Both the position numbers and the translations under genes were made by a program. From Escherichia phage Gostya9, in the sequence record NC_047979.1: a stretch of 64,000 bases of DNA. One strand, given 5' to 3'. Of the stretch, positions 829 through 64,000 are shown piece by piece (within the stretch, counting starts at the first letter, position 1; every line of letters begins with the position of its first letter). The notes below the pieces were generated by a model. It made no database searches. It was not told the DNA's origin and worked only from the letters and a program-made list of their open reading frames with translations.

Positions 829-1602
829 TTATACAAACTCATACGCCGGGAACTTAGGTGAACGAACTCTATTACCTATAGTCGCTGTGGAACACCCCAA
901 TGCTCTAGCTGCTGCACTCATACTAACGTATTCCACACCATCCACACGTACTGCCTTAAAGTGAGTAGGAATGGGTGTCTTTCCCTCTCTAATACTTTCT
1001 TGGTACTGCTTAGAAGCCTGAGACATCTTGCTCAGAGCCTCTTCAGTGTGCTTCTTCCCATAAAAGGAGTTATTCTCACCTGTTCGATCCCTACAACTAT
1101 TACAGTACTCCCCATTAGTGTTATTAAGGGCTAGTAGGGAACCACAATCAATACATGTTTTTGAGCGAGTAGATACTCCTCCCTTCCAGTTATAGTTTAG
1201 CTCGCCTGGTCTACTCCACCGGGCTTTTCTTTCTTCTTTAGATAAGGACGCTATATGCTTTCTAACACTCTCACTAATTCTCTTAATAATCTCCTCTCTT
1301 CGAGGATTATTTGTGAGATTATCCCCGCCACCGTAGCTACCTATGTTGAACTCTGCTCCCAGCTCCTTAGCCCACTCTTCTTCTAGTAAGAACTGCTGAT
1401 CTACTTCTTCAGTAGTATCTAAGATGTCAAATACAAAGTCTTGCTTTCCGGTTTTATCATAAGCTCTCTGTAGAAAAGCGTTATGGTGGTTCCCCTTACT
1501 TAGTGAGTAAAAATGTTTACGCTTTCTAGCCTCAATATCCTTAGTCGATCCAACGTACTGTCTTCCCGTAGATAGCTGAGTTATACTATAGATGTAAATC
1601 AT
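829..1602 (-). CDS. GIY-YIG homing endonuclease (free-standing, Seg/I-TevI-like)
   Basis: N-terminal IYIYSI...YVGST GIY-YIG block; C-terminal Cys cluster CIDCG..CNSC and a helix-turn-helix-like tail typical of phage GIY-YIG endonuclease DNA-binding modules. Start overlaps the thyA stop. Confidence 0.8.
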   Translation of the reverse strand: MIYIYSITQLSTGRQYVGSTKDIEARKRKHFYSLSKGNHHNAFLQRAYDKTGKQDFVFDILDTTEEVDQQFLLEEEWAKELGAEFNIGSYGGGDNLTNNPRREEIIKRISESVRKHIASLSKEERKARWSRPGELNYNWKGGVSTRSKTCIDCGSLLALNNTNGEYCNSCRDRTGENNSFYGKKHTEEALSKMSQASKQYQESIREGKTPIPTHFKAVRVDGVEYVSMSAAARALGCSTATIGNRVRSPKFPAYEFV

Positions 1603-2432
1603 GCTGCCATTTTACCAGTTAATTTAGGGTGATGTTTATATTCTTCCAGGATAAAGTCTTTGGGTGTTAGGGCCAGAAGATCTTCTAAGGAAGAGAAGTT
1701 TGGCAGTACTAGTCTAGGTAGCTCCAGGGGTTCTCTAGTTACTTGCTCCTTTACTTGGTCTAGGTGATTTAAGTAAATATGAGTGTCCACAAGATGTCCT
1801 GTTACTGACCCAGGTTTCTTTCCTGTGAGTGCAGCTAAAATATGACAGAGTAAGGCATAGCTAGCTATATTAAATGGTAATCCTAGAAATACATCACAAC
1901 TAACCTGGTACCATGTTAAGTGTAGGTGTCCATCTCTTTGGTTTACAGAGAACATTACGTGGCAGGGAGAAAGCACAACGTCGTCAAGTTTTGCAGGATT
2001 CCATGCTGAGACTACCATTTTTCTATTATGAAAAATATCGGATTTGATATCCTCGATTAGTTTCATAATCTGGTCTGTACCGAAGAAGTCTCTCCAGTTT
2101 TTCCCATAAATATATCCCAGATAACCTTCAGTGTAGCCTTTTTCGACCCCTTGTTTTTCATAATTAGGATGCCAGATAGTACGCTTCTCTCCTCTAGTCC
2201 CATGAGTATACTCTTCTAGATCATACAAGTTAGTAGATCCTGAGAGGAACCACAACAACTCCCCTACCACGGATTTCCACGCTAGTGCTTTTGTTGTTAC
2301 TGCTGGAAACCCTTTAGTAAGGTCAAAAGAGACAATATTATTTAGGGAAGAGATAGTACCTACACCTGTCCGGTCAGACACGTGGGTTCCCTCAGATAAA
2401 ACTTTATTAATTAAATCAATATACTGTTTCAT
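1599..2432 (-). CDS. thyA: Thymidylate synthase
   Basis: Catalytic LSPCHVMF motif plus GLPFNIASYALL block; length typical of ThyA. Confidence 0.9.
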   Translation of the reverse strand: MKQYIDLINKVLSEGTHVSDRTGVGTISSLNNIVSFDLTKGFPAVTTKALAWKSVVGELLWFLSGSTNLYDLEEYTHGTRGEKRTIWHPNYEKQGVEKGYTEGYLGYIYGKNWRDFFGTDQIMKLIEDIKSDIFHNRKMVVSAWNPAKLDDVVLSPCHVMFSVNQRDGHLHLTWYQVSCDVFLGLPFNIASYALLCHILAALTGKKPGSVTGHLVDTHIYLNHLDQVKEQVTREPLELPRLVLPNFSSLEDLLALTPKDFILEEYKHHPKLTGKMAA

Positions 2433-2965
2433 TAATAAGTAACCAATTCCTGTACAAATCGCAGGCTGTTATCACTGTTTGCGCCAACTGCATAGACTAA
2501 TCTAGTGGATTCATAGTTATAATCCAGTATCATACTATCTAGGTATGTATCTGCCTCTAGCTTCTGTTCGCTAAAGATTGTAGATACAAAAGCACTTTCT
2601 ATATGCCCATGTTGGTACATTTCTAGAAGAAGATTAGCTCCGCCTAGAACTACTGTTTGCTGATCTTTTAGAAAAGTAGGTAATGTATCACCTATCATTG
2701 ATATGGGAGTGTAAATATCATGTGTAATATCGTCTGGCAGTGGACGATCAGCACGAATAAATAGGTCAGAAGTTCCAATCATACGTTCCCTAACGGCGTA
2801 TGGAAGAGCTAAATAAGTACCTGCCCCAATAATAATATTATCAGGATTTAGTACATCTAATTGTGAATAAAAAGCATCTAGTTCTTCTTTAAAAGAACCC
2901 CAGGGAAGCTTACCTCGGAGGCCGAACTCCCCATTCGGCCCAACTGCATACATTGCACTAATCAT
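2432..2965 (-). CDS. frd: Dihydrofolate reductase
   Basis: N-terminus MISAMYAVGPNGEFGLRGKLPW resembles DHFR; 177 aa; sits immediately downstream of thyA as in phage thy-frd modules. Confidence 0.75.
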   Translation of the reverse strand: MISAMYAVGPNGEFGLRGKLPWGSFKEELDAFYSQLDVLNPDNIIIGAGTYLALPYAVRERMIGTSDLFIRADRPLPDDITHDIYTPISMIGDTLPTFLKDQQTVVLGGANLLLEMYQHGHIESAFVSTIFSEQKLEADTYLDSMILDYNYESTRLVYAVGANSDNSLRFVQELVTY

Positions 2966-4107
2966 AGGAAATCTCCAAATTCATTGCCCAGATCTTTTAG
3001 AGTATCAGTAGAAGTCTCAGTTACCTGACCTACACGATAGGCTGCACCAATCTGGATTTCTTGTGGAGCAGGCTGTAGAGAAGTAGTATCCAACCAGTTC
3101 ATGATCCACGGAATAGGGTTTTTAGTGATTACTGGTAAGTGACTAGGCCATTCTACGCCAATGTGCATAAACGCGTTACGTCCCACAAAGTACAGGTACT
3201 CTTCTAGCAGTTCTGCATTCAGACCAATCAGACTGCGACCTTTGAAAATGAAATGACCCCATTCAATTTCAGTTTTCAGAGTTTTCAGGAGCTGTGCTGG
3301 TGCTTTAGCCACTGCCTCATCTACCAGATCTTTGTCAAACTGCTGGAACATAATCTGGATGATTGTTTTAGACATCTGGGTGTGCAGAGCTTCATCTTTA
3401 GCGATCAATTGCAGATTTTTAGCGATACCTTGCAGAATATCGTTCTCTGCTAACGCAAAGGTGCACGCAAAGGATGCGTAGAATTGCATTGCTTCCAGAC
3501 CGTAGATTGCAAAATAAGCATCTAACAGTTTAGCCTGAGTTTCACGCTTAACTTCAGGGAACTCAGTTTCTGGGTACGTATTGTCACCACGATGATCACG
3601 TACTGCGATGAAATACTGACCTAACTGGTACAGTTCATCGAACAGCTCAACAGAATCTGCGATACGTGCAAATGCTTCTTGGTTTTTAGTTACAGAATCA
3701 ATAAATTCTGCCGGATCAGTCAGCACATTACGAATAATGTTACTATAAGCACGGCTATGCAGGTCTTCAAAGTAGCTCCACTGCTTGAGCATACCTTCTA
3801 GTTCTGGACGGCTTACCAGCGGCATAATAGCTGCTTCAGGCGCTCGACTGATAAAGGAATCAGTTTGAGTCTGCCATGCTAAGTTCAGGAGTGTGATTTC
3901 CTGAATTTCACGTGGGAGATTGGGCCATTGTTTCTTATCGGCTTCTAAACTGATTTCTGTCTCAGTCCAAAATTGCGAGCGTTGCAGAAGTGCCAGACGC
4001 TCTAATTCTGGGTGTGCTACGCGTACATAATCTGCGATACCTAGAGAATCGCCCAGGAAAAGATCAGCGTTAGTATGATCCCAATTCAGGTTTAGTAAAG
4101 TAGTCAT
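2962..4107 (-). CDS. nrdB: Ribonucleotide reductase class Ia beta subunit
   Basis: 381-aa ORF with ferritin-like diiron architecture (EALH ligand block); adjacent to nrdA. Confidence 0.85.
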   Translation of the reverse strand: MTTLLNLNWDHTNADLFLGDSLGIADYVRVAHPELERLALLQRSQFWTETEISLEADKKQWPNLPREIQEITLLNLAWQTQTDSFISRAPEAAIMPLVSRPELEGMLKQWSYFEDLHSRAYSNIIRNVLTDPAEFIDSVTKNQEAFARIADSVELFDELYQLGQYFIAVRDHRGDNTYPETEFPEVKRETQAKLLDAYFAIYGLEAMQFYASFACTFALAENDILQGIAKNLQLIAKDEALHTQMSKTIIQIMFQQFDKDLVDEAVAKAPAQLLKTLKTEIEWGHFIFKGRSLIGLNAELLEEYLYFVGRNAFMHIGVEWPSHLPVITKNPIPWIMNWLDTTSLQPAPQEIQIGAAYRVGQVTETSTDTLKDLGNEFGDFL

Positions 4108-56390: not shown

Positions 56391-57128
56391 TTAGTCTCCA
56401 GGAACAACAGGATTAACTGTCACAGCACATATAGTAGAGTCCTTGCTTACTTGCTTACTATCTGTTACAGTTACTTTATAAGAGCCGGCATCCTCAGCTG
56501 CTGCTGCAGGCTTAGTATAGGTAGCTTCTGAAGCATCCGGAATAGGAGAACCATCTTTAGTCCATGCATAAGTATATGGACCAGTACCACCAGTTGCAGT
56601 AACAGAAAGTGTTAATGCTGCTCCCTCTTCGACTGACATGCTAGCAGCTAAATCTGTAGAAAGAGTTAATGGTGGAATAACTGTAGTCACACACTCAACA
56701 GACGTTATACTAGCTTGTTTACTATCAGTAACTACTACTTTATAAGTACCAGCGTCTTCCGCAGCTGCTGTAGCTTTAGTAAAGTTAGGTCCTGATGCTT
56801 CTAGAGGAGAACCATCCTTAGTCCAAGCATACGTATATGGAGCTGTACCGCCACTAACTGTTACGCTTAGATTAATTGCCTCTCCAGTATCAACTTCCAA
56901 AGTGCTATCTAGATCCTTAGTAAAAGCCAGAGGAGGAAATGCTTTATCATAAGCCTCTACAAATTTCTTCCATACTTTACGGTTAGTATGCGCAGATGAA
57001 AGTCCTAGTTCTCTACGCAGAAAAGCATAGCTAGGAACATATTCATGCGCAGCGACCGTAGCAAAGAAGATATGAGATTCTGGCAGGTTTTCACCAAAAA
57101 TGGTCTTTAGACCATTATAATCAATCAT
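56391..57128 (-). CDS. Capsid decoration-like protein with two tandem Ig-like domains
   Basis: Two about 55-aa repeats (SVTVSGGTAPYTYAWTKDGSPLE... and SVTATGGTGPYTYAWTKDGSPIP...). Confidence 0.6.
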   Translation of the reverse strand: MIDYNGLKTIFGENLPESHIFFATVAAHEYVPSYAFLRRELGLSSAHTNRKVWKKFVEAYDKAFPPLAFTKDLDSTLEVDTGEAINLSVTVSGGTAPYTYAWTKDGSPLEASGPNFTKATAAAEDAGTYKVVVTDSKQASITSVECVTTVIPPLTLSTDLAASMSVEEGAALTLSVTATGGTGPYTYAWTKDGSPIPDASEATYTKPAAAAEDAGSYKVTVTDSKQVSKDSTICAVTVNPVVPGD

Positions 57129-58342
57129 TCTTTATCTCCCTCGGTGGAACCTTGAGGTCTACCACCTTCTTGACCAGATACACCTGTTGCAGAACCAGCA
57201 ACGTTAGCAGGAATACGAATCCTATTCATCTGCTCATCATCTAAAGGTTCAAGGTTCAGCTCTAAACGAGCTTCGTTACCAGTCATAATACCATTATTAA
57301 CCAATGAGGTTAAATGTTTAGCCTCAGCTTCTTTATCTGGTGTTAATGCAGCTACCTCCTTAGTATTAGGGGTAATCCTATAACCAAAAAAGAAAGTAAG
57401 AGAACTAGTCAGTTTGTTCAGCATAGGAATGATAGTCATATAATAGAACAATTCGATGTTTGGTCGAATATTCGCATTATTACCACCATCAATCAGTACT
57501 TGCGGAACACCAAAGGCTAGACAGATAGATTTATTAAATCCTGCGATGTCTTCCTTAAAGTCTAGATCTTTAAAAGAGGATATTTGGGAGTACGGTTTAG
57601 CTTTCATACCACCATCTAGAATCAGGACAGAAGACTGACCCGTACTAGGATTATAATCGAGTTGTAATTCTTCTTGTTTACGCTCACGCAATTTCTTGTT
57701 CAGGATTTCATCCGTTTCAAGAATAAGACCAATCACGGTTCCGTTATCTAGGAACTTCTCTTTAAAGTTAAGCATTTTAGAACGCTTCTCAAGAGAATCA
57801 ATAACAGTAGCAACACGAGATTGTCCAGAAATTTGAGAATTTGTGCCACACACGTAACTGTTATCCTTTATAAAGATAATCTCATCTACGCGATAGTTTA
57901 TCTGATTATTAAATATAAATTTTTTGATAAACTTATTGGCATCTGCCTCGACCTGCATAAGAGCGGCCGGGACGTGGTAAAGCGATGTGCCATCCCAATA
58001 GATGTATGCACAACCCTCAAAAAGTAGGTCAGTGACTACAAGTCTACGGAATGTGCTTATATCCATGAATGGATTAGGTCGTACATTTAAGAGAGTGTCT
58101 AGAGTCTTTGTTTTGACGCCATTAGCGTACGTAACAATATTATATTTATCTCCGACAGTATAAGAACACTCCGCCGCACTATCTATAACCATATTGGCAG
58201 TTCGATTGAGAATCTCAATCTTGCTATAGGCTTGTCCAGTGGTAAAAGGCTTACGGTTAGTGCGATGACTAACTGGTTCCATGTCTCTTATAATACGTTG
58301 ACCCGGATTTAGCTTTTCAGTAATCCAGCTTTTAAAACCCAT
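57125..58342 (-). CDS. Portal protein
   Basis: 405 aa directly downstream of terminase/HNH and upstream of the protease. Confidence 0.7.
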   Translation of the reverse strand: MGFKSWITEKLNPGQRIIRDMEPVSHRTNRKPFTTGQAYSKIEILNRTANMVIDSAAECSYTVGDKYNIVTYANGVKTKTLDTLLNVRPNPFMDISTFRRLVVTDLLFEGCAYIYWDGTSLYHVPAALMQVEADANKFIKKFIFNNQINYRVDEIIFIKDNSYVCGTNSQISGQSRVATVIDSLEKRSKMLNFKEKFLDNGTVIGLILETDEILNKKLRERKQEELQLDYNPSTGQSSVLILDGGMKAKPYSQISSFKDLDFKEDIAGFNKSICLAFGVPQVLIDGGNNANIRPNIELFYYMTIIPMLNKLTSSLTFFFGYRITPNTKEVAALTPDKEAEAKHLTSLVNNGIMTGNEARLELNLEPLDDEQMNRIRIPANVAGSATGVSGQEGGRPQGSTEGDKE

Positions 58343-58794
58343 TATAAGAACCTTGCGAATCCTGATTTTGTTTCAGTCTTGACTTGTGTCTTTTCTTGAG
58401 GATTCTGTAATTTGTCTTTCTGCTTTTGAACCCATGCTTTCTGTTTATCAGCAGAAAATAATGGAGGTTCTTTCGTGTAAACCTTATGTAGTAATTGGTG
58501 ATGGTGCTGGCACAATGTTACCACGTCCCTAACTAACTCATGCTCATATTTCTTGTAGAATGCTTCCCTATTTGAAAGGACGATATTCTCATCAGTGAAA
58601 TCCAGCTGGAGTTCTTTAGCAAATTTTTTTATTAGCTGAGATATAGTATGATAATGGTGAAGTTCTAGGTCTTCACTACTACCACATATAGCACAGCAAC
58701 CATCCTTACTATACCTAGATTTTATACCATCCCTCATTATAGAAATGGCATCACGTTTGTACTTAGTATTAGTGGCCATAATCCTCCAATCCAA
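58342..58794 (-). CDS. HNH endonuclease, terminase-associated
   Basis: CAICGSSEDLELHHYH...LCQHHHQLLH HNH/Zn motifs; 150 aa; between terminase and portal. Confidence 0.75.
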   Translation of the reverse strand: MDWRIMATNTKYKRDAISIMRDGIKSRYSKDGCCAICGSSEDLELHHYHTISQLIKKFAKELQLDFTDENIVLSNREAFYKKYEHELVRDVVTLCQHHHQLLHKVYTKEPPLFSADKQKAWVQKQKDKLQNPQEKTQVKTETKSGFARFL

Positions 58795-59297: not shown

Positions 59298-60614
59298 TTA
59301 TTTACCACGGGAAATAGAGTAAATTCCATAGCGGAGCGCATCACAAAGGTGAGAGTTAGCATCATGACGTGGCCTTTCACGTGATAATTTCTCTTCACCT
59401 TCTTGGAAGTCCCACTTATAGTTCTGCAATGCATGAATTAAGGAGGAACATGAGGCATCCACAATAATTTTCCCTTGCTGGAATAGTGCTTGCAAGCATG
59501 CTAGGCCATCTAGGACAGATTTTTTAGCCGGAGCCGACGCGATTTCATGCTCATACGCTAAGTCCTGGCGGAACTGAGCTGCTGCAGAGTCAACAAAAAT
59601 ACGATCAACTTTATAACGATCTATACAGTGCTGAATATAAGCAGCATGCTGAGCTGTAGTTTTCTCCGCCTGCTGGTATTCTTCTAACACATAGTAGGTA
59701 TCTGTATCGTAATGATACTTAATAGTAAGAACTGCTGTAGGATCACGATAACCAACGTCAATACCAAGCAACGTTTCGAATGCTTCATCATCTTTAAAGA
59801 AGTGACGCATACCTTTGAGGTCTTTAACATGATCGATAGCATTAAAGGTATCAAATATCTGTCCTTCGAATACAGAGAAGTCAGCCTCGTATTCCTGGCG
59901 GAAATAGTTTTTACTAACTGTACGACGTGCTTCCTCAATGTCATGCAAGTCAGCACGTGGGTTATCACGATATGTACCATGAATAGATACCCAGTTAGGC
60001 AACGTATCATCAAATCCGTAGGCGTAAAACTCTTTAAACCAGTTACCTCCACGAGGAGTGGAAATAAATAGAGCCTTAGAATTAGGTTTATCTAGAGTAG
60101 GACGCAGCTGAACCCTGAAGGCATCACCGCCCACGTCGGAAATTGCAGCCTCGTCAAAGATGATAAAATCATATGAACGTCCAACTGCGGAGTCAGCCTG
60201 AGCCGCGGAAGCTAGTTTAAATAGAGAACCATTAGCTAACTCAATCTCTTTATCTTTGGCGTTTTCACGTTCGGTTTGTAGGCCATACTTCTTAATAAGA
60301 CCACGAATCTGAGACCATCCGATATTAGCTAGTGAATAGTTAGGAGCAACTACTAGTACCTTCACATTAGGTTCCAGCAATTTTAGGAACCCTAGTGTGT
60401 ATGCTATAAAGGACTTGCCCACACGGCGTGATACACACGCCGTTACAAAACGATGTCTAGGGTCTTCTAGCGCATTGATAATCGCTATTTGAGGGCCATT
60501 AGGTGTAATACCCTCTTGTGCTAATATTCCTGAAACAGGTAGACGAAAGAAACGTTTGTCTACCCCGAAATCAATAACATCTACTGTGTTAACGTAGGGT
60601 CTTGATACTTCCAT
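59298..60614 (-). CDS. Terminase large subunit
   Basis: N-terminal ATPase with Walker A-like CVSRRVGKSF and Walker B-like IIFDEAA; C-terminal nuclease region; 438 aa. Confidence 0.85.
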   Translation of the reverse strand: MEVSRPYVNTVDVIDFGVDKRFFRLPVSGILAQEGITPNGPQIAIINALEDPRHRFVTACVSRRVGKSFIAYTLGFLKLLEPNVKVLVVAPNYSLANIGWSQIRGLIKKYGLQTERENAKDKEIELANGSLFKLASAAQADSAVGRSYDFIIFDEAAISDVGGDAFRVQLRPTLDKPNSKALFISTPRGGNWFKEFYAYGFDDTLPNWVSIHGTYRDNPRADLHDIEEARRTVSKNYFRQEYEADFSVFEGQIFDTFNAIDHVKDLKGMRHFFKDDEAFETLLGIDVGYRDPTAVLTIKYHYDTDTYYVLEEYQQAEKTTAQHAAYIQHCIDRYKVDRIFVDSAAAQFRQDLAYEHEIASAPAKKSVLDGLACLQALFQQGKIIVDASCSSLIHALQNYKWDFQEGEEKLSRERPRHDANSHLCDALRYGIYSISRGK

Positions 60615-61096
60615 TACTTCTTACCTCCAGTAGCTAGGGAAGTAATTAAGTCCATGTAGTTTTGATCCCCAGCTCCAGCAATAATGTTATTCTGGATATT
60701 GGTCTGGTTAGCAGGAGCTCGAACGGCGGCTTTAGCTTTCTCTAGCTCTACCATCATCTTCATTTCTTCCATCTTCATTTTGTGTGCCTTCCAGAGAATA
60801 TCCATAATATCCTGGTCAGAGCCCATGCCAGTTTCTTCCAGTTCCTCTAGTTTACGCTTAATAACTTCGTCTAGAACCCCAAACAAACGATCCCTATTAC
60901 GGAATCCACTCTCCATAAAAATATCGTTTAAGTAGTTCTTAACTTCACTACGATTCATAATATCTCGAAAAGCAATTTCAGACATTCCAAGACTACGTGC
61001 GGCAGAAGGCACATCACTGCCGCACTGTAAATAAGCTTCAATCACATCCATCCCTTCAGGGGACATAAGATCTGGTACTAATACATCATTTGCCAT
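60614..61096 (-). CDS. Putative terminase small subunit
   Basis: 160 aa immediately upstream of terminase large with overlapping stop/start; HTH-like [17 protein letters not shown]. Confidence 0.5.
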
Positions 61097-63033
61097 TATG
61101 TTAACCTCTGTATATTTAATCTTAGCTTAGGAAATTGGATGTACGGCGGTTTGCCTGTGGAAACTCCACCAACCGTTAGAGGAGTAGCACGAGAAGTTCC
61201 CCAGAACTCCAGATTACCAGTACTGCCATTCTTCCTTATATAGTATTGGAACCTGCTCTTTGGTTTACCACCACTAGAGCTAGAAGCCCCTGAGTAGCTA
61301 AAAGCATTTTCCACATAGATAGGAACGTAGACGTTAGGGTTTAAAACTATTATTTGGTGAGATACAGCATCACCTTTATCATAGTCAAATTTGGTTAATC
61401 TTTTGCTAACCCCTGCCGGACTGTATATAGAGCTATTTAAACTCCAGAGATAACCCATTGAAGGATCTCCATTAGGGGAGCATAGGTCATTTCCCATCCA
61501 TTCTATGCTCATAAGCACTACTGTAGTACCAGATGCCGGTAATCCCATCCCAACACTACTAATCATTTTTGTACCACCAGTGGCTATCTCGTGTAGCCAC
61601 TCGTTATCTCCTATAATTACATTACTAGCCTTATTACCAGTAAAGAGCTGTAGAGGCCTAACTGTAGGACTCCAAATATCTACATTATTTATAGAGATTT
61701 TAGGACCCGAGCTATTAATAGCAATACTGCTATTGGTGGGGAATTTGTAAAGCCCAATATTCCATTGTGTTGTAGAACCTATGGAAGTTTCAACGTTTGA
61801 AGCTGCCCAGCTACCTGAACCTCCGGATCCGGTAGTACCATAAAACCTGAAAGCGCCCCCATCCGGTAACGCAGTGGCAGAAGATGCCTGAGTATTACTG
61901 CAAAAGTAGGTATTGCTTATACTAGGAGTACCTGTACTAACCGCTGATAACATTTCATAGGATGTGCTGCGCAAATTGACACCTTTTATATTAAAGTCAG
62001 TCCTACTAACTTTTATATCACTACCCGTAAAAAGGTTTTGAGCTGTATATCCACCAGTATTACTGAATGTTACGTTTAGAACTAGGTATTCCATACGTAC
62101 AGGGGTCATCCCAGCGTAGGTAGCTTCAGTAAACCCAGAAATTAATCCATTCCTAACATGGCGTTCAATCCCAGCACGAACAAATTTAGACATAGGTACA
62201 GAAGCATATAAATCTGGAATACTATTAGCGTAATAATCTATATTCCTAACAGATGAGGCTGTAGTACCTGCATATGTATTTTTTATCCCTGTTAGATTTC
62301 TGGCCCCACCTGCCCTAACGAATACAGTATCATAGGTGCTACTAGATGGGCCTAGGGGATACATATAATCTGGGTTTATCAGAAAGTTTTTTTCCATATC
62401 ACGAATATTTCCTGTGTATGGATTACTGCCTCTAGGAAGCCAATTCCTATTAGGTGTCCTTTTATACGGGTATTGAGACCATACACCAGTAATAGTAGCC
62501 CCCGAAGCTATATCAAAAGCATACGCTGGGTCATAATCCTCTCCAGCCTCAACATTAAATATAGTATAGCCACCAGTACCTGCCACACCAATTCTATCTG
62601 CTACAGTAACTCCCGAAGCAGCCGTATAGTACCCCCATTCTAAGTTGAGATCAAAGGATAAAGACCCACCATATAGACAGGACACACCTATTAAATCTAA
62701 GTCATGCCAAAGGTAGCTAGAAGCTCTGGCCATCCCAAACATCTGATGGTAATATTCAGTACCACCGCTGTTCTTACATACTAAAACAGGAATAACAACG
62801 TTGGCTCTATTGGCCAGGATAGTACGTAGTTCGGTTGGAAGTGTACCAATGAAGTAACCATCACCACCAGCACCTAAGTTTACCGTATAACGTGTCTTCA
62901 CGAAAAGATGTGGCATGTCTGAGTGAAATATAGTATTCCCGTTTGGCGTGTTATGTATGTTAACATCTCCCCCAGAAGCCGTATTGAGGGAAAGGACAGT
63001 TTTCGTTCCTATTCTTCCGGCAAAGAAGCTCAT
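61096..63033 (-). CDS. Putative receptor-binding tail protein (pb5-like position)
   Basis: 645-aa Gly/Ser/Thr/Asn-rich beta-type protein at the head of the late block; size and position match the T5 receptor-binding protein as I recall it. No sequence comparison was possible. Confidence 0.5.
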
Positions 63034-63194
63034 AAAACCTCAAAATTTCACTTGTCAACAAGTCTTTATTTTTGTATACTATAAGTATAAATTAAAAAGG
63101 TATCCAAGTAAACTAAATTTTTTATTTCTTGGACGGTATACTGGCAGAAACCACTATGTAAGAAAAGTAGAAGTCCTTCTAGGAGTCCACAATC

Positions 63195-63386
63195 ATGGTC
63201 GGTTATGCACAAATTATAAAATACTTTAAATATCACATTTATAGGAGCATGAAAGATATGTCAAACAAGAGAAAAAGTAGACGCGGAGAAGTGTATGAGA
63301 GTTGGGTTAATAGTTTTGGACTTGGGACTATCCTATTTTTTATTTTCGTAGGTTTTTGGTTGGCAGCTATGGCGGGGTGGATTTAA
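63195..63386 (+). CDS. Small membrane protein (C-terminal transmembrane helix)
   Basis: aggag RBS 9 nt before the ATG; C-terminal GLGTILFFIFVGFWLAAMAGWI; stop overlaps the next start (TAATG). Confidence 0.45.
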   Translation: MVGYAQIIKYFKYHIYRSMKDMSNKRKSRRGEVYESWVNSFGLGTILFFIFVGFWLAAMAGWI

Positions 63387-63487
63387 TGGAATGGGTAATT
63401 GTTACATTGCTAGGGATTGTGATTATTGGGCAATGTATTAATCACTTAGCTAGAATTGAAACTTTATTACTGGAGAAACGTAAATGA
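63386..63487 (+). CDS. Tiny membrane peptide (33 aa)
   Basis: MEWVIVTLLGIVIIGQCINHLARIETLLLEKRK; translationally coupled on both sides (TAATG and ATGA overlaps). Below the track length cut-off. Confidence 0.35.
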   Translation: MEWVIVTLLGIVIIGQCINHLARIETLLLEKRK

Positions 63488-63678
63488 TGGAAGTAGTAGC
63501 TACACTAATAGTAGTACAAGTCTGGGCAACTTTCATTGTTTCTTATAACGCGTATGTTCGCCTAAAAACTCTAGAAGCTCAAGTAAAACAACAACAAGTT
63601 ACTCTAGAAAAGCTAGTACTACTGCAACGTTGTGATAGTACCCGCATTTTGCAAATTGAGAGGGAATTAGATGTTTAG
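63484..63678 (+). CDS. Small membrane protein (N-terminal transmembrane helix)
   Basis: MMEVVATLIVVQVWATFIVSY... then a coiled-coil-like tail; coupled to its neighbours. Confidence 0.4.
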   Translation: MMEVVATLIVVQVWATFIVSYNAYVRLKTLEAQVKQQQVTLEKLVLLQRCDSTRILQIERELDV

Positions 63679-63916
63679 TATTATACTTGCTTTTATTATC
63701 GGGGTGCTTGCTGGAATTTTCGGAATGACTGCGGCTATTAACAAGCATCGCAAATATATTGCGGGAGTATCGCGGGAGATTGCGGAAAGGGAGCGGAAGT
63801 TTGACGAGAAACGTGCGGAGTTTGAGCGGGAGTGGAGTGATGGTTCTCGGGCGTCGCGGAAGAGATTTCGTGAGTTTAAACCTGAACATCGGTTTGATGA
63901 CCATTCTATGCGCTAA
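63671..63916 (+). CDS. Small membrane protein (N-terminal transmembrane helix, charged tail)
   Basis: MFSIILAFIIGVLAGIFGMTAAI... followed by an Arg/Glu-rich tail; 8-nt overlap with the upstream ORF. Confidence 0.4.
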   Translation: MFSIILAFIIGVLAGIFGMTAAINKHRKYIAGVSREIAERERKFDEKRAEFEREWSDGSRASRKRFREFKPEHRFDDHSMR

Positions 63917-64000
63917 TTGGGAAATCTCGAAATTTCATAAGATTACACATGGAGGTGTGCTCACTGCCGGAGGCGAAAATACTTAGTCTGCTAACCGCCA

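Follow-up and report, generated by a model that had tools for sequence, protein, structure and literature searches.

A conserved operon of four overlapping genes for single-helix membrane proteins beside the receptor-binding protein gene of phage Gostya9 and other T5-like phages

In phages T5 and BF23, the receptor-binding protein gene (rbp) is accompanied by llp. The llp product, Llp, is a receptor-blocking lipoprotein, made early and not needed under laboratory conditions; some RefSeq records name it 'Cor superinfection exclusion protein'. In T5, llp is followed on its own strand by four small genes, orf1 to orf4, with no terminator-like site detected in between; the neighbourhood suggests that they belong to a common 'lytic conversion' transcription unit. 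These four genes are already known, being present in the T5 llp-region record X75922 (orf1–4) and its successors, including T5 NC_005859 (T5.159–T5.162), BF23 DQ097178 (Orf1–4) and DT57C (DT57C_000130–133). Each of T5.159–T5.162 bears the note 'contains single transmembrane domain' in NC_005859; no mention of T5.159–162 or T5p157/158 by name was found in the literature searched. All four T5 genes were scored 'Not Fit' in a CRISPRi-ART screen, their knockdown having no fitness effect (PMC11879866). This is weak evidence that they are dispensable for the laboratory growth of T5, because the authors of the screen warn of reduced precision outside the pre-early region (PMC11879866).

Small exclusion proteins of the inner membrane that act after adsorption, and independently of the receptor, are found in T4 (Imm) and P22 (SieA), and they provide a working analogy for orf1–4. 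Imm reportedly prevents DNA ejection at the inner membrane in T4. Unlike the four coupled micro-proteins described here, Imm and SieA are single gene products, and no sequence similarity between the two sets was detected, so the likeness is functional speculation.

We analysed a window of 64,000 nt from Escherichia phage Gostya9 (NC_047979.1), in which four plus-strand ORFs are chained head to tail at 63195–63916, pointing away from rbp (Table 1). Their coordinates bear out the layout proposed in a first-pass annotation of this DNA, with rbp divergent on the minus strand: the stop and start codons of ORF1 and ORF2 share 1 nt (TAATG), ORF2 and ORF3 have 4 nt in common (ATGA), and ORF3 and ORF4 overlap by 8 nt. 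Each ORF is preceded by its own Shine-Dalgarno sequence. An Rfam scan of positions 62800–64000 found no RNA element.

Table 1. Features of the rbp–operon region of Gostya9, in window coordinates
Feature	Coordinates	Strand	Remarks
ORF1	63258..63386	+	42 aa from the most probable start; T5.159 / orf1 orthologue; mechanical ORF from 63195, 63 aa
ORF2	63386..63487	+	33 aa; T5.160 / orf2 orthologue
ORF3	63484..63678	+	64 aa; T5.161 / orf3 orthologue
ORF4	63671..63916	+	81 aa; T5.162 / orf4 orthologue
Receptor-binding protein gene, pb5 family	61096..63033	-	645 aa; divergent; context, outside the operon
Best candidate sigma-70-like promoter of the rightward operon	63052..63080	+	Consensus scan, 10/12 matches
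Conserved segment of ~70 nt	63098..63165	+	Four-way alignment; apparent crossover site of rbp(+llp) cassette exchange
ORF0, decayed remnant	63146..63257	+	Comparison with S124, Sepoy, KookSpook and T5

The sizes first given for the products (63, 33, 64 and 81 aa) hold for ORF2 to ORF4 but not for ORF1. Translation of ORF1 most probably begins at ATG 63258 and not at 63195, because an AGGAG motif lies 9 nt upstream of the former, the matching PHROG profile has 42 positions and the orthologues T5.159 and DT57C_000130 are both annotated at 42 aa. Comparison with related phages identifies the 21 extra codons of the longer reading as what is evidently the 3' end of a decayed upstream gene, ORF0. 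Epseptimavirus, KookSpook and H8-type phages have an intact copy of this acidic gene of ~104 aa; in Gostya9 it carries a TAA directly after the ATG, plus an internal deletion. NCBIfam and PADLOC scans with the ORF0 product of Sepoy gave no informative match.

The four ORFs are real protein-coding genes under purifying selection. Across 12 Tequintavirus genomes, pN/pS was 0.18, 0.19, 0.38 and 0.28 for ORF1 to ORF4, respectively; most of the variation fell at third codon positions of the plus frames, indels were in frame, and the junctions, overlaps and Shine-Dalgarno sequences were almost invariant. ORF2 itself carries a 6-nt in-frame deletion, removing two residues, relative to all 11 aligned relatives. 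The ORFs are very short, and their annotation varies by record, with one or two of the ORFs omitted in some entries and the name tail fiber or tail assembly protein given in others, as might be expected of chance ORFs or of non-coding leader sequence beside the terminal repeat. Nevertheless, the third-position bias and the pN/pS values in the plus frames, together with the in-frame indels and the near invariance of the ribosome-binding sites and overlaps, leave that reading a negligible probability, as does the hydrophobicity of the products: all four contain a hydrophobic helix, against a background of 11% of 182 small six-frame ORFs in the window with a 19-aa hydropathy mean reaching 2.0.

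The earlier claim of one transmembrane helix per product agrees with the hydropathy profiles, which show a single hydrophobic stretch in each protein (best 19-aa Kyte-Doolittle means of 2.17, 2.06, 2.05 and 2.53 for ORF1 to ORF4). Transmembrane helices were called from hydropathy, and topology was assigned by applying the positive-inside rule by hand to the flanking charges. ORF1 has a basic N-terminal tail (MSNKRKSRRGEVYESW) followed by a C-terminal transmembrane helix and is predicted to be tail-anchored with its N-terminus inside. In the other three proteins the helix is N-terminal. It is followed in ORF2 by a short basic C-tail and in ORF3 by a 39-aa heptad-repeat (coiled-coil) tail, with L, I or V at 8 of the 11 a/d positions. 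In ORF4 it runs on into a long and highly charged helix (18 K/R, 13 D/E) with a disordered C-terminal end; an AlphaFold2 model of this protein consists of one helix spanning residues 2–68 (mean pLDDT 74). From the charge distribution, the soluble segments of all four proteins are predicted to be cytoplasmic, leaving practically none of their residues in the periplasm. A repeat scan yielded a single find, a 33-nt spaced internal repeat within ORF3.

Each product matches a PHROG family over the full length of the profile: ORF1, phrog_8596 (E = 8.3e-32, 42 of 42 positions); ORF2, phrog_6369 (E = 9.3e-20); ORF3, phrog_5851 (E = 2.4e-33); and ORF4, phrog_6447 (E = 1e-47), which is categorised under 'moron, auxiliary metabolic gene and host takeover'. 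Three of the four products match Gostya9 GenBank entries exactly, namely ORF1 (AWN08792.1, identical also to DT57C_000130), ORF2 (HOT33_gp052) and ORF3 (HOT33_gp051, 100% identity). Searches of Pfam, NCBIfam and PADLOC gave no informative family match for any of the four, and PDB sequence searches with ORF3 and ORF4 returned weak coiled-coil matches or nothing. No homology to known exclusion, holin, spanin or defence proteins was detected in PHROGs, Pfam, NCBIfam, PADLOC or the PDB.

Judged by sequence and gene order, ORF1–4 of Gostya9 are the orthologues of the T5 orf1–orf4 operon (T5.159–T5.162). Searches with the cluster by tblastn and blastn found matches in T5, BF23 and DT57C, whose products show amino acid identities to those of Gostya9 of about 77–98% for ORF3 and 86–98% for ORF4. 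The T5 operon agrees with that of Gostya9 in gene order, lengths and overlaps, in its position before the right terminal repeat and in the single transmembrane helix of each product; the Gostya9 operon differs in having no llp upstream, in an ORF2 two residues shorter and in a flank of the H8/S124 type instead of the T5/BF23 type. We compared synteny in the annotated genomes of DT57C, BF23, T5, Shivani, SP3, phiLLS, STP-SP2 and mar004NP2, as well as in the alignment, and found the same order, strand, and overlapping starts and stops, with the rbp(/llp) locus on one side of the cluster and the right terminal repeat on the other. Overall, the cluster was found in 442–444 records of T5-like phages, whatever the receptor. 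When ORF4, ORF3 and ORF1 were searched against a word index of 5.8 billion proteins, nothing beyond T5-like phage sequences was found, and an exhaustive comparison of an ORF4 profile HMM with 1.84 billion representatives found T5-like phage proteins plus one marginal charged-helix match (E = 6e-4). By these searches, nearly all T5-like phages that infect E. coli or Salmonella have retained the operon, which is restricted to that group.

As the first-pass annotation had stated, T5 has a receptor-blocking lipoprotein gene, llp, at this position. In Gostya9, llp is missing between rbp and the cluster. A lipobox scan of all ORFs of at least 40 aa in the 64-kb window found none in the four products, as had been noted, and no credible candidate elsewhere, and tblastn of the T5, DT57C and Sepoy Llp sequences against the same window gave nothing better than E = 2.2; the terminal repeats and the left third of the genome lie outside the window. 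The phage is reported to lack llp and to have a divergent pb5. The Gostya9 RBP is an exact match to the receptor binding tail protein AWN08791.1, and its best match in other phages is at 53% amino acid identity, to H8/S124-type proteins.

In the flanking DNA, homology to S124 spans 62909–63184, and homology to DT57C begins at 63081, directly after the putative promoter of the rightward operon (TTGTCA-17-TATACT), which is inside the divergent region common to H8/S124-type phages and has an identical sequence in S124. The ~70-nt conserved segment adjoins rbp in S124/H8-type phages and lies downstream of llp in DT57C and BF23. The rbp/llp cassette has been swapped wholesale among FhuA-, BtuB- and FepA-type phages, and the cluster does not covary with the type of RBP: it occurs with T5-type (FhuA), BF23-type (BtuB), H8-type (FepA) and Gostya9-type RBPs, and its nucleotide identity is 72–97% across phages with RBPs reported to use FhuA, BtuB or FepA. 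It is found immediately downstream of llp in T5, BF23, DT57C, Sepoy and KookSpook, and without llp in Shivani, RUS_R2, S124 and the Gostya9 window.

These patterns bear on the earlier suggestion that the operon is an alternative receptor-masking module. A substitute for Llp would suit a locus from which llp is missing, in a window with no lipobox ORF or Llp homologue. However, we consider it very unlikely, because the four genes coexist with llp in the five phages listed above and their soluble parts are placed in the cytoplasm, with no periplasmic exposure predicted, which should keep them out of reach of a receptor in the outer membrane. Moreover, the cluster of DT57C, which uses BtuB, shares 97% nucleotide identity with that of Gostya9, although the RBP genes of the two phages are unrelated at the nucleotide level. 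The four products share with Llp a locus and a strand but differ from it in having no lipobox, no Llp homology, a predicted inner-membrane and cytoplasmic topology, and conservation irrespective of the receptor.

A holin-like lysis module had also been proposed. Small single-helix proteins with charged C-terminal tails, as encoded here, are superficially holin-like, and the N-terminal transmembrane helix and coiled coil of ORF3 recall the i-spanin of the lambda Rz/Rz1 pair, so that holin, antiholin or lysis-regulator proteins tuning the moment of membrane permeabilisation might be envisaged. Nevertheless, a core lysis role is unlikely, because a full holin/endolysin/i-spanin/o-spanin cassette has been described elsewhere in T5-like genomes (PMC4342426) and knockdown of T5.159–T5.162 had no fitness effect (PMC11879866). 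The cluster has no adjacent endolysin, its neighbours being rbp and the terminal repeat; no o-spanin lipoprotein partner was found in the window, and no holin or spanin family was matched in Pfam, PHROGs or NCBIfam. In contrast to an i-spanin, ORF3 has a C-terminus predicted to be inside and a tail of only 39 aa; the predicted topology provides no periplasmic domain, and 64 aa would be too short to cross the periplasm. The promoter slot is, in addition, that of the early gene llp in T5.

The earlier proposal of superinfection exclusion is possible if its site is moved to the inner membrane. The operon would be transcribed early, using the rightward promoter slot from which T5 expresses llp, and coupled translation would fix the stoichiometry of the four products. 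To judge from the overlap of the genes, the four helices could form one small inner-membrane complex. Its cytoplasmic face would comprise the basic N-tail of ORF1 and the short tail of ORF2, as well as the ORF3 coiled coil and the charged ORF4 helix. On our best reading, such a dispensable, stoichiometric complex may serve in receptor-independent exclusion or act on a host membrane target. We tentatively propose, as the likeliest role but one still well short of probable, that the operon adds to the 'lytic conversion' unit a second layer that does not depend on the receptor. It would act in the infected cell at the inner membrane, where it might, for example, block genome entry of superinfecting T5-like phages, instead of masking the receptor at the outer membrane. 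The locus of llp-less Gostya9 would then have no other exclusion function at the level of the envelope. The independence of the cluster from receptor type, its adjacency to llp, on the same strand, in T5, the predicted membrane topology and the accessory nature of the T5 genes favour exclusion. Against it, no homology to a known exclusion protein was detected in the databases searched, the link of orf1–4 to llp is positional only, and orf1–4 are strongly conserved, without the signs of an arms race that rbp and llp show.

The narrower version, in which the four proteins form a dedicated device for receptor-independent superinfection exclusion among T5-like phages, we regard as rather improbable; its target could be the channel formed by the tape-measure protein of any incoming T5-like phage, or the two-step transfer of that phage's DNA, either of which it might block. 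If true, it would explain how Gostya9 and lineages of the H8/Shivani type manage without Llp, and would extend the textbook account of 'lytic conversion' by T5 with a second layer. The llp-less Gostya9 offers a natural background in which any exclusion activity that the operon has could be assayed free of effects of Llp.

The complex might instead bind and modulate a host inner-membrane protein, in host takeover or counter-defence, with no part in phage–phage exclusion. Candidate targets would include a protease, the TonB-ExbBD or Tol energising systems, the division machinery or a membrane-acting abortive-infection effector, and a host membrane protein as target would make the operon a new host-takeover factor. 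The predicted inner-membrane location with cytoplasmic tails, the accessory nature of the T5 orthologues and the PHROG category of ORF4, which includes 'host takeover', are consistent with this alternative, and a conserved host target would suit the strong conservation of the genes. ORF4 also gave a match to the LapA domain (PF06305; E = 3.4e-4), the sole near-hit of the family searches, but it is below the curated threshold (20.9 bits against the 28-bit Pfam gathering cut-off) and spans the transmembrane helix and the basic helix, a hydrophobic, compositionally biased stretch. PADLOC and NCBIfam provided no match in its favour, and T5-like phages of Klebsiella have non-homologous proteins in the same slot, although the inner-membrane proteins of their hosts are very similar. 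On balance, we consider a host target a doubtful, though admissible, explanation.

The Klebsiella phages concerned belong to Sugarlandvirus. In vB_KpnS-VAC51, for example, the interval from rbp to the terminal-repeat gene dmp contains UEP19490 (74 aa) and UEP19489 (153 aa), which point away from rbp, and no llp; in both products an N-terminal transmembrane helix leads into a coiled-coil or charged tail. The slot is thus filled by two genes instead of four, and BLASTP gave no alignment with the Gostya9 products at E <= 100; these proteins may be analogues of the T5-type operon, or may have diverged from it past recognition.

Database comparisons indicated that the four overlapping plus-strand genes (ORF1–ORF4) are known genes with existing annotations: exact Gostya9 entries in GenBank exist for three of their products (ORF1, AWN08792.1; ORF2, AWN08793.1, HOT33_gp052; ORF3, HOT33_gp051), and the record for the region around the receptor-blocking lipoprotein gene llp of T5 (X75922) already includes the operon. 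The 645-aa product of the adjacent receptor-binding protein gene (rbp, pb5 family; 61096-63033, minus strand) was likewise an exact match to Gostya9 AWN08791.1/YP_009802301.1, and the T5-like relatives nearest to the window are DT57C and DT571/2. ORF1–ORF4 correspond to PHROGs 8596, 6369, 5851 and 6447 (E-values 9e-20 to 1e-47) and have orthologues as orf1–orf4 in X75922, as Orf1–4 in BF23 record DQ097178 and as T5.159–T5.162 in the T5 RefSeq genome, where all four entries are annotated 'contains single transmembrane domain'. The cluster occurs in about 442–444 phage-collection records, by our arithmetic nearly all of the 532 with a pb5 homologue minus 82 Klebsiella phages, and homologues from searches of 5.8-billion proteins and 1.84-billion representatives were T5-like phage sequences throughout. 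This is a near-universal micro-protein operon of the T5 family, and its remaining interest lies in its function. The label given to orthologues of ORF2, ORF3 and ORF4 in phiLLS, ESCO30, JLBYU40, OSYSP and UniRef entries is 'tail fiber protein' or 'tail assembly protein', and the phiLLS rbp is named 'super-infection exclusion protein'; these names look like propagated misannotations.

The first-pass annotation described ORFs of 63, 33, 64 and 81 aa, joined by TAATG (1 nt), ATGA (4 nt) and 8-nt overlaps. The overlaps were exactly recovered in the window sequence, with a Shine-Dalgarno-like purine run for each downstream gene within the 3' end of the preceding one. The coordinates also stood, except that ORF1 probably starts at ATG 63258 and encodes 42 aa: an AGGAG lies 9 nt upstream of this ATG, the PHROG profile has 42 positions, and 42 aa is the annotated length in T5 and DT57C. 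The N-terminal extension in the longer reading is spurious, and is supplied by a 3' fragment of ORF0, an upstream gene that is decayed in the window.

Coordinates and properties of the features discussed (positions in the window or in the locus of the relative named)
Feature	Location	Strand	Length	Description
ORF1	window 63195..63386	+	63 aa as called	as 42 aa: basic N-terminal tail (5 K/R, 2 D/E), hydrophobic helix up to C-terminus
ORF2	window 63386..63487	+	33 aa	1-2 N-terminal residues, helix, short basic tail
ORF3	window 63484..63678	+	64 aa	3 N-terminal residues, helix, 39-aa tail
ORF4	window 63671..63916	+	81 aa	1 N-terminal residue, helix, long charged tail
Direct repeat in ORF3	window 63568-63628		28 nt	imperfect, 33-nt spacing
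Antisense ORF	window 63599..63904	-	101 aa
Intact ORF0	L010 2766-3080; L015 (KookSpook) 831-1169; L003 2036-2347; L006 (Shivani) 2219-2545		~80-112 aa	acidic, non-secreted, overlaps ORF1 start
ORF2-like paralogue	L015 (KookSpook) 1245-1400		51 aa	between ORF1 and ORF2
ORF4 next to an HNH endonuclease gene	L011 (SP3) 3546-3713; L006 (Shivani) 3409-3627; L004 (RUS_R2) 3366-3584			HNH gene inserted after ORF4
VAC51 proteins	L017 2185-2873		74 aa, 153 aa	between rbp and dmp
Cys/His-rich ORF	window 58342-58794	-	150 aa	CCAICG...HHYH...CQHHH
Neighbour of Cys/His-rich ORF	window 57125-58342		405 aa
Neighbour of Cys/His-rich ORF	window 59298-60614		438 aa	corresponds to large terminase subunit of relatives

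In an alignment of the cluster from 12 Tequintavirus genomes, variable columns were biased to third codon positions (20, 15 and 48 at positions 1, 2 and 3 of ORF4), no indel broke the reading frame, and the three gene junctions were nearly invariant. Pooled Nei-Gojobori pN/pS, restricted to the non-overlapping parts of the genes, was 0.18, 0.19, 0.38 and 0.28 for ORF1 to ORF4. ORF1–ORF4 are real genes under purifying selection, and the original four-ORF observation is correct, well beyond chance. The codon-position pattern gave no support to the antisense ORF.

Each product contains one strongly hydrophobic stretch, in agreement with the single transmembrane helix originally predicted; the best 19-residue Kyte-Doolittle means were 2.17, 2.06, 2.05 and 2.53 for ORF1 to ORF4, and only 11% of the window's 182 small ATG-initiated six-frame ORFs scored 2.0 or more. 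A net positive segment directly follows the helix in ORF2, ORF3 and ORF4 and, by the positive-inside rule, the soluble segments of all four would be cytoplasmic, with almost no periplasmic exposure. A heptad pattern runs through the ORF3 tail, where L, I or V fills 8 of 11 a/d positions. No heptad pattern was found in the ORF4 tail (18 K/R, 13 D/E), and the AlphaFold2 model of ORF4 is a single continuous helix over residues 2–68 (mean pLDDT 74). The direct repeat in ORF3 produces an 11-residue repeat inside the coiled-coil tail (TLEAQVKQQQ/TLEKLVLLQ). ORF2 has 33 instead of 35 aa through a 6-nt in-frame deletion, absent from all 11 aligned relatives, that removes LD after ...GQCI; at 90% identity, its protein cluster is a singleton.

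Comparison of the rbp locus with T5-family genomes, a check proposed in the first-pass annotation, indicated that the four genes are conserved, in the same order and rightward. The order rbp (leftward), llp, four genes (rightward) and right terminal repeat was found in T5, BF23, DT57C, chee24, phiLLS, STP-SP2, mar004NP2 and SP3; in the annotated T5 locus llp does adjoin rbp, as stated in the first-pass annotation, lying between it and the four genes. An intact ORF0 occurs in Epseptimavirus, KookSpook and H8-type phages: Epseptimavirus Sepoy and KookSpook carry it between llp and ORF1 as an acidic gene of about 104–112 aa, and the H8-type phages S124, Shivani and RUS_R2 carry it and lack the lipoprotein; the absence of llp from Shivani is stated in its genome announcement (PMC4342426). 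Neither a lipobox nor a family match was found for ORF0, and the label 'receptor blocking protein; T5 Llp-like' in the S124 record apparently rests on position only.

Between rbp and the operon (63034-63257), both llp and an intact ORF0 are absent. None of the four products has a lipobox, as first noted, and the full 64 kb of the window yielded neither a lipobox ORF nor a T5-type or BF23-type Llp homologue. Golomidova et al. reportedly already described Gostya9 in 2019 as lacking llp and having a divergent pb5. ORF0 is reduced to an ATG directly followed by TAA at 63146 and the 3' fragment. Homology to DT57C begins at 63081, which corresponds to the base after the DT57C llp stop codon, and 62909-63184 is a stretch shared with S124 and H8, comprising the rbp 5' end and the divergent promoter region of these phages. 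In a four-way alignment, the window tracks S124 up to about 63098 and, from about 63165 on, DT57C and BF23; the intervening ~70 nt (about 63098 to 63165) occur in all four sequences, H8-type and BF23/DT57C-type loci alike, and look like the site of crossover in an exchange of rbp(+llp) cassettes. The best phage-collection matches of the rbp product were H8/S124-type (FepA) proteins, at 53% aa identity, and nucleotide likeness to these phages is confined to the initial ~40 codons and the sequence upstream of them. A related Logan-derived cluster representative was present on 11 contigs.

The overall reading in the first-pass annotation is only partly right. Receptor masking, for which the operon had been proposed as an alternative module, is very unlikely, because the cluster coexists with llp in most relatives, stays 72–97% nucleotide-identical while rbp and llp are exchanged as FhuA-, BtuB- and FepA-type cassettes, and encodes proteins that their predicted cytoplasmic topology keeps away from the outer membrane. 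A core role in lysis, suggested in the form of a holin-like module, is unlikely, since T5-like phages are reported to contain a complete holin/endolysin/i-spanin/o-spanin cassette elsewhere in the genome (PMC4342426), no endolysin or lipoprotein partner was found at the locus and none of the four products matched a holin or spanin family. Genome-wide CRISPRi-ART knockdown also scored all four of T5.159–T5.162 as 'Not Fit' (PMC11879866 supplement), which is weak evidence because the authors state reduced precision for T5 (PMC11879866).

The data fit a dispensable, stoichiometric inner-membrane complex of ORF1–ORF4. In T5, where no terminator-like site was found between llp and orf1–orf4, the complex would be expressed from the rightward transcription unit that also contains llp, an early gene. 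Guilt by association with llp leads us to favour, tentatively, receptor-independent exclusion or envelope protection at the inner membrane, with T4 Imm, described as blocking DNA ejection at that membrane, as an analogue for exclusion. Host takeover or counter-defence, acting on an inner-membrane target, is a doubtful alternative, nearly as likely as exclusion. Gostya9, which lacks llp, is a convenient background for a functional test of the operon.

The C-terminal end of ORF4 is dispensable, because in SP3, Shivani and RUS_R2 an HNH endonuclease gene inserted behind ORF4 replaces the last ~14 residues to give a 72-aa version; in SP3, part of the hydrophobic helix of ORF4 and the basic segment next to it are lost as well, through a 51-nt in-frame deletion. 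The extra paralogue in KookSpook results in five coupled micro-protein genes. Klebsiella phage vB_KpnS-VAC51 (Sugarlandvirus) has no llp, and its two proteins in this slot are non-homologous to those of the cluster, each with an N-terminal transmembrane helix and then a coiled-coil or charged/Ser-rich tail. This suggests that architecture rather than sequence is kept, and the two proteins may be ORF3 and ORF4 analogues. Elsewhere in the window, the Cys/His clusters of the 150-aa ORF make it look like a candidate HNH homing endonuclease.
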